From Chrysomallon squamiferum (taxonomy: Eukaryota > Animalia > Mollusca), in assembly GCA_012295275.1 (NCBI GenBank), contig CM022675.1, forward strand, positions 3,038,001-3,102,000: 64,000 nt of DNA. Reading direction: 5' to 3'. The position numbers and the translations under genes are program-made. The notes under the pieces are model-generated. The model searched no databases and had not been told where the DNA came from. It saw nothing but the letters and a program-made list of their open reading frames with translations. Within the stretch, counting starts at the first letter, position 1. Each line of letters starts with the position of its first letter. Below, piece by piece: positions 878 through 62,563 of the stretch.

Positions 878-2568
878 GTTTCACTTTCCACACTTCCACT
901 CTGACTGACAAATTTACAACTCAGACAGGTTTGTGAATCTGAAATAATGTTGTTTGTTTGCTTGTTTCTTTATTTATTTGCTAGTTTATTATTAATTTAT
1001 TTGTTTATTTGTTTGTGTATTTATTAGTCTTTTTGTTGGTTTGTCTGTCTGTTTTTATTTATTTATTTGATGTTTATGTGGCTTTTTATTAAACAACAAC
1101 ATTAACTACATATATATATATATAAATTGTTAGACAGTAAAAGCAGTTTTTGTCTTGTTTATGTTCAAAACTTTTGTTTTACGTGTTTTATAGATTTTTC
1201 ATCAACTCAACTTCTGATCACCTCCGAAACAACAGTTAATTCAGGTAAAATGTAAATAATCTGAATATCTATGTGATAAAATTTGGGTTGATAATTTCGC
1301 AATTAATTAATTAATTTTTATAATTATTTTTAATATTTGTTTATTTGTTTGTTTATTTTTTTGTTTGTTTGTTTATTGATTTATTTTTATTGTTTTTATT
1401 TCATTTATTGTTTTTTTACCAGTAGATATTTTTCAGATTATAAGATAATTTTTTTCTTTGATGTAAATTAGATATAACCATTTTGTTACAGATCAAAGTC
1501 CAACTGGAAGCACAAAAAAGGTTTTAAGTAAAACAAAATCATCAAAATCAGGTAACTTTGTGAATGTATCATTGTTACATTTAATGTTATTATTTCATGG
1601 TGAAAATTAAAAAAAATTATATATCATTATATGTATGTATAAATAGTTAACATGACCAATACTTATGTATACAAACACTCTACTTACACACAGACAGACA
1701 CACACACACACACACACACACACACACACACACACACATTAAACAGAGCTTGTATAGAAGTATTTCTCATTATAACCAGTGAATACAAAAATCACAAATT
1801 GTTTATCAAAAATGTCTGTAGTGTTCACTTTTTTTTCCTTGGAAACATGGAGGTTAGCAAACATTTGTTATTAATGGATAATACTTGATTTTATTTTTGA
1901 TGCATTTTATAAATTTATATTTATGCAGATGTTGCTGTTGGTGTTTCAGTAACTGTGGTTATACTTTTAGTAGCATGTGCAATTGTTGCTCTTGTTTATA
2001 TGAAGAGGTAAATACAGTTACCATACTTGATAGATAACTTGAGATAACTCTTTATATTTATGTAATAATGTTTCATTTTATAATTTATTTAATATATATA
2101 ACAAACAAACAAATACTAATAATAATAATAGTAATAGTAGTAGTAGTAATAACATTATTAATAATAACAATAACAATAATAAAATTAATTATTATTATCA
2201 GCATTACTGTTATTATTATTGATTGTATTATCTTTTTAATTGTTATTTTATTTTGCTTATTTCATTTTAATTGATTGCTGTTTCTTAAAAATAAATATTA
2301 AACATTTTTATTTTGGTTTCTAAATCAGTTTTTTTCTTATTGCAGGAAAAATACGTTTTGCTTTCAACAAAATTCTGCAGACATCATTCACAACAACAGC
2401 AACAACTCAGACACTACGACAACAGTAACAGAAACTGAGAACAGTGCAATCACTGACTCAAATTATGAGCGACTCAACACAACTCAAAGTTCTCAAAATG
2501 AGTACATGAACATGCCACGTGAAACAGAACATGTTTACTGTGTAATGCACTCAAAAGCTGAAGATTAA
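878..2568 (+). CDS. Gene A: 3' part of a short-tail CTLD/WSC receptor (5' exons lie left of the window)
   Basis: AG/GT-bounded exons: stalk 878-928, 1194-1244 and 1492-1551 (Ser/Thr-rich); TM 1929-2007 (DVAVGVSVTVVILLVACAIVALVYMKR); tail 2346-2568 (...DSNYERLNTTQSSQNEYMNMPRETEHVYCVMHSKAED*). They splice in frame and are collinear with genes D, F and H. AATAAA follows the stop. Confidence 0.85.
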
Positions 2569-3490
2569 AACAAATAAACTTTGACTGAGTGAAACACTCG
2601 ATCTGCTAGTTAAAATAAAACTTTTACACAAGTACTGCATAGTCTGCACTAACATTTTTATTTTTTATTTATTTTACTATCATATTCAGGAAAATACTAA
2701 AATACAGATTAATCAGATTAACTTAATATTTATAATATCATAATAAAAATAATAAGAATAACAGCTGACTTTAATTTGACACAAACACATATCCGTCTGC
2801 TCTATCTACATTTCTGTCTAATTCTACAATGTACACATAATATAATATATACCTGTAGGGGCTGATAGCTGATAAATATTTCACATACTTATTAAATGCA
2901 AACTACTAATTATTCACAAAAATACAAAACACACAACTACTCTTCACAGTCAAAATTTACATCAGAAACATCAAGTGTAATAATGATCTGTTCTCTCGGT
3001 GAGACTTATTTTACTAATTCCAGTTCCAACTGCTGATCTTGACTTGTTTACTAGTATTTAAGATTGTTGTAAAATGATTGTTTATTAATGTCAGTACTGA
3101 ACAGTCTTTACTTCCCTTATGATAAAAATATTTAGAGAAATGGAGAAGTGTATTTAAAAATTTAGAAATTAAAGCAACAATAATGAATGTGTATGTGTGT
3201 AAATGAAAGATAGTAAAACACAGACGTAAATTTTTGTCAAAGTTGTGTAATTCAGAGCTGCTCACACAAAATATTTCCTGTTCCAGTCAATACCAGTGAC
3301 TGGTTTTCCTGTTTATGAGAGGGTATATATTTTGATAATAATAAACAAGAATAGTCCATGCTGTGGTTTTGTCTCCGTACTTTTATGATTCTTAACATAT
3401 CACTTGTAATTCTATATTACAAATTCATACAACATCTCTTCTTCCTATGATATCAAGAAATCACAAAAGAACACAGAATTATTAATATAA

Positions 3491-59400: not shown

Positions 59401-62400
59401 TAAATAAATAAATAAATAAATAAATAAATAAATAAATAAATAAATAAACAAATAAACAAACAAATAAACAAATAAACAAACAAATAAATAAATAAATACC
59501 ATCTATATTAGAGAAACAGACGAGTGCAAAAAAGACTACAGTCGTAAACAAGATTTTACCTGTCTTATAAATACTCATTGTGTTTTCAGTCCCACAGTTT
59601 TCATCCGGGTTTCCATGACAACGCGTTTTATTTTGTCTTTGAACAGATCCATCTGAAACTTTATCCCAGCTTTTCGAGTTAAAACAATAACATTTCTCTC
59701 CCTGTAATACAAACATTTAAAATAATAAACATAACACGTATTAAAAATACATTTTTTTACCACTTTCACACCAACTTAATCTGTTTCTTTTCCAAACAGG
59801 GTACCACTGACAATGATATAACTGATTTCATGTCAAATAACCTTTGCTGCTAAACTGTAAGAACAGTTCTTTTAGTGAGTAAGAAATATTTTAATATTTA
59901 TATATATATGCGTATGTAGGTGCATATATAAGTATGTAAGTATGTGTGTATATATGAGTGTATATGTTCATGTTCGTATGTATTTACGTGTGTATATATG
60001 TATATGTATATTTTAGGTATGTCTGTAGGGTTAGAGTGTATATGTGTGGGTGTGAACTTAACAAAAATGTATTTAATGTTACTTACTAACCTGTAATCCC
60101 ACATATTTTACACCTGCAGTAGTTTTGTTGTGTTCACATTTATAATAACAACGGCTTGCCTGGTTGTCATATTTGATTTGATAAAACTGTACAGATTGTG
60201 ATTCATTCACTTCTCCAACATAATTAAACAGAGGTGTGTTATCCGCTGTAGAACAAACTTGATTTGTTTCATACAACTGATTTTAAAAATATTATATATA
60301 TATACATACACACATACATATAGATGTAGAATGTAGAATATGTTTTTAATATAACATTTAGTCTGAAAGACATATATGTACACACAGATACAGATGAATA
60401 CGCACACATACACAGATCATTTCATTTCAGGTGGAGTTTCTTATTTTACTAGAGATTTTCAAAAAAAAATGTTGTGATAGCTCTCCAAGTATTCAAATGT
60501 TTTGATGGTTGATTTAGATTGGGCATTATCCCTCTCAGACTGTTGTTTCTTTAATTTTCTATGGCTGTTTGAAGAGAGGAGAACACAAAAACGTATTTTA
60601 CAACATACACATAGCAATTATTAGTCAGTGGAACAAGAGACATAAATAATCAAATTCTTTCGTGAGTAATATAATTTTGTTCAGGACTCTCTCAGGAACA
60701 ATATTAGCGATGTTATCTGTAAAAACGCAATTTTACCCCTTCAAGTAAATTTATTCACAAAGAGATCAGTATTCAGAAGTTGTTGATTGTAAATTTTGTT
60801 AGAAATATTAGAACTGGTAACACCTCTGATCTGTGCTATCACTCAGTAACTACAGAAATTTAAATGGAGGGTGGTTTAAATACACGAGTTTTTCATTTGA
60901 CACAAACAAATAATTAGTTCTTGAAATAAGATAGTACATATCCTGTGTAGTTTTGCATGAGTTTCCCAGGACTGAAAAAAAAAGACATTTCCAGAAATGA
61001 TGATCACGAAAGACGATTTTACAAATGCCGTTTTTGGATTCTAATAGTGACGGTCTTTATGATGTAAATCACTGGATCTCATTTCAGTGTCTAATCCTAT
61101 GTTTTGTTGTTTGTATAGTCTAATAAATACATTTCTGTGCACCATAAACCATTCTAATGTGCATAAATGTCAGAAACAGAATTAAAATGGCAGCCATTAT
61201 AAACTCGAAGCAAAACATTTGTCACTCTTAGTTAAAGAAAAAATAGCTGCCATAGGTAATCATTTTTCATGTTTCTTTTACAGATACCATCGCTAATCAC
61301 TGATGGAAGAATTTTGTTATCCATGGTCTTTTGCTGCTCTGATTAATAACTGTTGTGTGTCTATAGCAAAAAAAAACATTCTGTAACCCCTCCCTTCAAA
61401 CAAAGCAAATTAGTGATACCAGTATTACAACAGTCTTGCAATGATGTCTAAACTAAATCTACCATCAAACCTTCTGACTACTCGGGGTACTACGAAATCG
61501 ATTTCTAGGCCTCTTTTAAAAATCAACTCCCGGACTATTAGAGCCATACGTATATTATAGACTATACTGATACTGAACAAACAAAACAACAACAACAGTA
61601 ATAACAACAACAGCAAAACAACAACAACAACCACAATAATAATAATAATAAATAATAATCCAGACATATAATACTAGCATTGTAAAATAAACAAAATGTT
61701 TTTTTTTTTAAAAAACAGTACAAAAAACAAAAACAAATGTATATAAATAATAATATTTGTGCATATAAAATCAGTTGTCGTAAATACAATGTTAATGTCA
61801 TAACTAGACGTTCCTCTTGTTATGGACTTGACTAGATGCTATCTATGGGCTATTAACAGGAAACAAAACAAATAAATGTGTACATGTCTGATACAATTTT
61901 TTGCTGTTTTCATTATATAGCATATAACCATAATAAATTCACAGTAGTAACCAACATTAGCCAAAGATATCGATTATATACAATTCACAAATGAACTTGT
62001 TCGACATTACACAGAAATACAAATTTAATATAACTGAATATTCACAGTAGACATAAGCTTTTCGTCTGCTTATTTCTTAAAGTTTGATGATCGTAACTTC
62101 ACAGTAAAACAAATTTATAATTTATTTCACCTGTCCACATCCAGGAACTGTACTGAACTTTAGCTCCAATCCAGTAAGATCCAGCTGTGACATCACTCAG
62201 TGATGTAATATCTGACGTACTGTACAATTGTTCTCCATGTTGATGACATGTATAAAACGCTGTATCCCATGTGACGTTATTTAATACACGCAGAGTAGCT
62301 GTAATTAAATATATTTACTTACTAAACAAACTGTATAATTAACAACTCTCTCTCTCTCTCTCTCTCTCTCTCTCTCTCTCTCTCTCTCTCTCTCTCTCTC

Positions 62401-62563
62401 TCTCTCTTCTTTCACAAAATTATAACTATAAAAAAAAGGAAAAAAAAAAATAAAAGCTTTTCACTTGTAATTAATATATTTTACCTGACACAGAAAACAG
62501 CTGACATAAAATCCAGCCGAAAACTGCAAGAAGCAGACGACTTGTACTCCATAGTTCAGCCAT
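56420..62563 (-). pseudogene. Gene I: long-tail receptor with the TM exon deleted (pseudogene or secreted form)
   Basis: Signal 62563-62485 (MAELWSTSRLLLAVFGWILCQLFSVS), 62298-62131, 60245-60091, 59701-59560 and 59162-59034 are intact. The CTLD2-N exon (~58775-58587) has lost its acceptor. Then 58278-58153 and a stalk exon 57577-57473 with a GC donor. About 0.8 kb including the TM exon is missing relative to B. The tail 57068-56420 is open. Confidence 0.8.

Follow-up and report, generated by a model that had tools for sequence, protein, structure and literature searches.

Does a tandem cluster of lectin-like genes in the gastropod Chrysomallon squamiferum form a paired-receptor system, in which similar ectodomains are joined to tails of different signalling character? 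The question is raised by a 64-kb stretch of DNA (64,000 nucleotides; assembly GCA_012295275.1, contig CM022675.1, positions 3,038,001 to 3,102,000 of the forward strand), here called the window, in which self-comparison and exon seeds located nine units of one receptor family across 878..62563. The units combine a C-type-lectin-like domain (CTLD) and WSC ectodomain with a single transmembrane segment and a tyrosine-bearing tail of either of two classes. We consider it somewhat better than an even bet that this cluster, with recombining ectodomains and two old tails, works like a paired-receptor system, likely as a molluscan variant of paired receptors. An earlier note on this DNA had described the nine units, and the span, positions, motifs and spacings given there were confirmed.

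The short class comprises the plus-strand units A, D, F and H, which carry a tail of 73 amino acids (aa) with three tyrosines and the motif SNYERL-x9-YMNM/V-x7-YCV. The earlier equation of plus strand with short tail applies to these four; unit E, on the same strand, has stalk exons of the short type and lacks a transmembrane segment and tail. The long class (B, C, G and I, minus strand) has tails of 190-215 aa with 12-16 tyrosines. The proposed size of about 205-215 aa with some 15 tyrosines describes B (214 aa, 16 tyrosines), C (206 aa, 12) and I (215 aa, 15); G retains a 190-aa remnant with 14. Stalk exons are class-specific, as had been noted. Sharing of signal, CTLD and WSC exons between the classes was borne out for the ectodomains, which are 78-86% identical on amino acid level among D, F, H, B and I (values against D and I), and a signal exon was located in only four of the nine units (C, D, E and I). 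D is the sole unit that splices to a complete open reading frame, with GT-AG introns and one terminal stop, and encodes a type I membrane protein. The units are the following.

878..2568, plus strand: unit A, short class; stalk 1, stalk 2, transmembrane and tail exons, YMNM in the tail; its 5' part precedes the window.
3491..9076, minus strand: unit B, long class, broken; signal exon not found; exon 6 with a stop and a 1-nt deletion, transmembrane exon 16 nt short, stop near the start of the tail exon.
13184..21081, minus strand: unit C, long class, broken; divergent exon 5-7 type in common with E; exon 3 with a stop and a 4-nt deletion, exon 4 frameshifted, one stalk exon damaged; transmembrane exon (14108-14183) and tail exon (13184-13805) open.
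23746..29848, plus strand: unit D, short class, complete, 11 exons, 465 aa.
Exons of D, plus strand: signal 23746-23824; CTLD N-half 24049-24216; WSC 24914-25065 and 25421-25562; CTLD C-half 25926-26054; CTLD N-half 26454-26648; CTLD C-half 26927-27049; stalk 28348-28404 and 28768-28818; transmembrane 29344-29422; tail 29626-29848.
34780..40486, plus strand: unit E, open from signal through stalk 2; short-type stalk; divergent exon 5-7 type, as in C.
41143..46710, plus strand: unit F, short class, without signal exon; stalk-2 exon damaged, rest open.
47768..48614, minus strand: unit G, long-class remnant; partial stalk fused to the tail exon, no transmembrane exon.
49269..55307, plus strand: unit H, short class; signal exon not found, stalk-1 donor lost.
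56420..62563, minus strand: unit I, long class, broken; no transmembrane exon, exon-6 acceptor deleted, tail exon open.

The two tail classes have no detectable homology to each other, in agreement with the dissimilarity described before: their alignment gave z=-0.4, and 320 of 500 shuffles scored as high. Both classes are old, with counterparts of each present in gene models of Gigantopelta aegis. Tails were compared for 22 of the 27 homologues bearing a transmembrane segment (P0032, P0037, P0056, P0067 and P0071 were omitted). The short tail matched that of P0028 of G. aegis (z=11, none of 500 shuffles), and the long tail matched seven of the 22 at the same 0/500 level, namely P0006 and P0007 of G. 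aegis, P0011, P0016 and P0020 of Haliotis, and P0029 and P0048. Not one of the 22 matched both classes at this level. One 35.4-Mb scaffold of G. aegis holds both P0028 and P0006, whose locus numbers are nearly consecutive. Thus, the classes predate speciation as far as the one short-tail homologue can carry this conclusion. In addition, aligning the short tail with the tail of P0038, from a Magallana (oyster) cluster, gave z=5.9, by which the short class could be much older.

The ectodomains do not track the tails and have been exchanged across classes by recombination. The ectodomain of D (short) is 82% identical to that of I (long) on amino acid level and only 24% to that of the short-tailed P0028. 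Forcing a clade of short-tail ectodomains was rejected (approximately unbiased (AU) test, p=0.0017, from a separate LG+G4 test run alongside a quick tree), as was monophyly of the tail classes within the window (p=1.7e-5). C (long) groups with E (short-type stalk) with 100% bootstrap support, and merely 5 of 104 informative sites split by tail class. Recombination was detected by a neighbour-incompatibility test (1 of 5000 shuffles); the nearest neighbour of a unit shifts exon by exon, and DNA similarity between the classes ends just beyond exon 7. Two exon 5-7 types, C/E and D/I, each occur on one long and one short-type backbone. The pattern corresponds to the ectodomain-only homogenisation of vertebrate paired receptors, termed merohomogenisation by Fossum et al. 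(PMC3210942).

The arrangement of the units as short/long pairs was confirmed: A/B, F/G and H/I lie tail-to-tail about 1 kb apart (922, 1057 and 1112 bp from stop to stop), and C/D lie head-to-head with 2664 bp from ATG to ATG. The three tail-to-tail pairs are, however, copies of a single duplicated block, 86-90% identical over kilobases by self-comparison, and represent one event rather than three. Hence, physical pairing provides no independent support for a paired-receptor reading and was discarded as evidence. What stands of the earlier analogy to paired receptors is the combination of old tail classes with recently shared, recombining ectodomains; the immune or allorecognition role proposed with it is putative.

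The family itself is an uncharacterised mollusc CTLD-WSC family. A profile search with exon 6 found one protein, G. aegis LOC121385587 (P0001), to which D is 33% identical over 412 columns covering ectodomain and transmembrane segment (E=1e-52). A full phmmer search yielded 71 matches. Among 30 representatives looked up, most of those carrying a name are "uncharacterized" proteins of Gigantopelta and Haliotis; there are also entries from Littorina (two) and from Aplysia, Magallana, Mercenaria, Tegillarca and Lineus (one each), and nine of the 30 lie on one G. aegis scaffold. D shares about 51% identity with the best-matching ectodomains of G. aegis. Since 16 of the 22 tested homologues have tails of at least 150 aa, long tails are the commoner type in the family. 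Intact long-tail genes do exist in relatives, as gene models of Gigantopelta and Haliotis. A word-indexed search with the P0001 ectodomain matched only itself, and a search for longer proteins by the long tail gave no match, which is weak evidence; all ESM Atlas matches stayed below 0.9, with TM below 0.5, and serve as leads only. No account of a two-tailed CTLD-WSC family was found in the literature, supplements and most subscription journals not being covered. The homologues being unnamed proteins, a non-recognition role has not been assigned to the family either. The description as an undescribed receptor system may hold for the family; the concept is not new, because receptor families with immunoreceptor tyrosine-based activation or inhibition motifs (ITAM or ITIM) have already been published in invertebrates (Hydractinia Alr, Botryllus FcoR).

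Domain labels for the window units are based on homologues and fold searches, which carry them. When the six ectodomain exons of D were searched singly against Pfam, four had no match and two had weak ones (a sub-threshold Lectin_C and an unrelated family); in the homologues Lectin_C is present, and WSC exceeds the cut-off in some. An AlphaFold model of homologue P0002 (predicted local distance difference test, pLDDT, 86.9; predicted template-modelling score, pTM, 0.82) resembled CTLDs with Z up to 12.7 (root-mean-square deviation 2.5 over 99 residues), and residues 77-174 resembled Wsc1 (Z 10.7, 2.7 over 94 residues). Single CTLDs align to this model with roughly 100 residues, spread from about residue 17-21 out to 318, so that the first N-half would pair with the last C-half in a single domain. 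In P0001 the inner segment, a C-half followed by an N-half, folds by itself (pLDDT 85.2), and its second half alone aligns weakly (Z up to 5.0) to N-terminal halves of CTLDs, as a circular permutation would give. The models thus predict an ectodomain of nested build: exons 2 and 7 would form the outer C-type lectin fold, which is conserved, and this would hold the variable part, made up of the WSC domain and a second lectin fold in circular permutation. This agrees with the selection pattern. The pooled pairwise ratio of nonsynonymous to synonymous substitutions (dN/dS) was 0.13 for exon 2 and 0.25 for exon 7, which suggests purifying selection on the predicted outer exons, and 0.83 and 0.71 for the variable exons 4 and 5. 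Both the CTLD and the WSC fold were recovered in this way, but not the motifs of sugar binding: EPN, QPD and WND are all missing from the D protein sequence. EPN/QPD and WND are the motifs of Ca2+-dependent sugar binding by C-type lectins.

As neither class has a charged transmembrane residue for an adaptor, each would signal via its own tail. The YExL and YxN motifs of the short tail are kept in P0028, where the serine of the short ITIM-like motif is not; in the long tail, SxYxxI is kept in P0006, and of the ITIM-like motifs of the two classes only that of the long tail is kept in G. aegis. SH2 domains differ in preference, with hemITAM bound by Syk, YxN by Grb2, YxxM by PI3K and ITIM by SHP phosphatases. 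Because of these preferences the short tail is assigned as activating and the long tail as inhibitory or damping, a polarity to which we give barely more credit than to its reverse. Ligand-driven clustering would allow Src-type kinases to phosphorylate the tails, which would then signal directly, without an adaptor. The short tail, with its acidic YExL and YxN, would then activate; inhibition or damping would fall to the long tail, with SDYxxI and its numerous acidic tyrosine motifs. Recombination would keep the outer domains alike with both old, unrelated tyrosine tails retained, so that ligands are likely shared between the classes, whereas their signals likely differ and are probably opposed. 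ITIM signalling via SHIP2 has been reported for oyster (PMC11841013).

Transcript data bear on whether the long class is in use. Contigs were mapped onto unit C at 80% likeness, and paralogues are therefore included. Run X5 is RNA, X4 and X6 are labelled "DNA?" yet contain spliced joints, and X2 is DNA. Among the 15 of 79 joints shown, X5, X4 and X6 had joints at four predicted introns and X2 had none of these; the long tail was covered in X5, X4 and X6. In four X5 contigs stalk 2 was spliced to a long-type transmembrane start without the deletion of B, and one holds the stalk bases that C has lost; it is therefore probable that a long-class gene or allele with less damage is transcribed. Of 20 tail variants, 17 match B, G or I and three match none, pointing to further copies or alleles. 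The word share of X5 on unit D was 0.18, which is no evidence of short-tail expression.

With nine units in 62 kb, of which one is complete, the cluster bears the signs of birth-and-death. Skipping of stalk 1, a symmetric stalk exon, would leave H with an open frame. The exon-3 stop and deletion of C are found with no differences inside DNA contigs of run X2, which may be the source sample, and assembly error was thereby ruled out for these lesions. E could splice in frame into F (34780-46710, plus strand); joined in silico, the two would encode a 781-aa double-ectodomain receptor without internal stop, and homologue P0017 has two ectodomain modules of this kind. An assembly gap of 200 N (48880-49079) between G and H may conceal the signal exon of H and upstream exons of G. 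An open frame at 9496-9768 (minus strand), presumably the end of a Tc1/mariner transposase although Pfam found no such match in it, sits just upstream of B, itself without signal exon. Between D and E lies what looks like a 5' fragment of a gene for SelO (protein adenylyltransferase): two exons (32393-33940, plus strand) that matched positions 13-140 only of Pfam profile PF02696.

Several observations weigh against a working paired system. All four long-tail units (B, C, G and I) are broken, and neither a whole long-tail transcript was found among the contigs nor a transmembrane-to-tail joint among the joints shown. P0028, the single strong short-tail homologue, is an N-truncated gene model with a long branch and unusual composition, and the nearest G. 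aegis ectodomains (P0003, P0013 and P0024) have no annotated tail. A strict ITAM, with the consensus taken from PMC9546547, is absent from every tail, and both classes contain an ITIM-like motif. Both tails have dN/dS near 0.8, no exon exceeded a pooled pairwise dN/dS of 1 as expected under positive selection, and gene conversion between close inverted neighbours requires no selection. In vertebrate paired systems it is usually the activating member that is short-lived; as the long copies are those lost here, the polarity would be reversed on this basis.

A more far-reaching form of the paired-receptor reading, put forward tentatively as it has less than an even chance, is that of a molluscan complex evolved independently of the vertebrate ones, in which recombination swaps a nested CTLD/WSC/permuted-CTLD sensor between activating and inhibitory tails. 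Two binding types would thereby each come to stand on both backbones, and the complex would adjust whether gastropods accept or reject microbes, possibly symbionts. Rather unlikely in our judgement is that both classes are activating receptors for recognition or engulfment which differ in strength or adaptors, exchange serving to spread binding surfaces. The lack of a clean ITAM/ITIM split, YxxL/I cores in both tails and a relaxed ITAM-like spacing in B, G and I speak for such same-sign signalling; two unrelated tails and motif conservation by class across two species exceed what redundancy needs. Improbable is a purely neutral history, namely a hotspot of segmental duplication with conversion by proximity, in which the long class is dying out and no working pair is left. 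The broken long units, the C lesions unchanged in DNA, the block origin of the pairs, the tail dN/dS and the SelO fragment caught within the cluster all fit this history, but not the RNA contigs free of the lesions of B and C, the unmatched tail variants and purifying selection on exons 2 and 7. Least probable are surface receptors outside immunity, for adhesion, gamete or neural recognition, matrix sensing or mechanosensing, whose tails would be adaptors for particular tissues. This would suit the missing sugar-binding motifs, the WSC fold matches to yeast Wsc1 and Kremen, and the reported joint occurrence of WSC and CTLD in polycystin-1-type proteins, but not the fast turnover, the clustered genes and an exchange confined to ectodomains, all of them typical of immune receptors (PMC3210942, PMC9546547).

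Taken as a paired-receptor system, the cluster most closely recalls the vertebrate paired opposing receptors (KLRC/NKG2, KLRI, KLRB, Ly49, PIR; PMC3210942), in which signalling parts predate the species split, ligand-binding exons were later homogenised, and genes with a C-type lectin fold form clusters. In contrast, the snail proteins are of type I with a nested CTLD/WSC ectodomain, have a tyrosine tail of their own in each class instead of a charged transmembrane residue and DAP12-type adaptor, and their opposing function is putative. Ectodomain-only homogenisation has been described for vertebrate leukocyte receptors; the mollusc case, if true, would mean that balanced on/off recognition re-arose in a protostome.

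The Botryllus fester family and fester co-receptors (PMC12065747) share paired genes whose copy number varies as pairs, birth-and-death, and tails with ITIM, hemITAM or core YxxI/L/V motifs. They differ in Ig/sushi ectodomains and linkage to a mapped allorecognition locus, and their pair is a proposed heterodimer of distinct proteins, not one ectodomain on two tails. Hydractinia Alr (PMC9546547) likewise is a cluster of single-pass receptors with pseudogenes and ITAM- and ITIM-bearing members, in which tails diverge more than ectodomains; it differs in Ig/Fn3 domains, strict ITAMs and a genetic allorecognition role for some members. Among gastropods, the Biomphalaria LG5R scavenger-class-F-like receptors (subgroups 1B/1C; PMC13712769) form a cluster with similar ectodomains with or without a large signalling tail. 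These have EGF/fucolectin ectodomains and phosphatase domains; "WSC" is absent from the main text of that paper, and ITAM/ITIM are not discussed in its available parts. The G. aegis hologenome paper (PMC7895826) treats C-type lectins generally, and "WSC" is absent from its main text.

By sequence and architecture, the same family is formed by uncharacterised mollusc CTLD-WSC proteins without functional name (G. aegis LOC121385102, LOC121385108 and LOC121385587, and proteins of Haliotis, Littorina and Magallana), of which the window copies are a recent local expansion. LOC121385102 and LOC121385108, together with the abalone homologues, would then provide a concrete receptor pair for studying how molluscs weigh activating and inhibitory signals. 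The nested and permuted build predicted for the lectin fold also merits structural study on its own.

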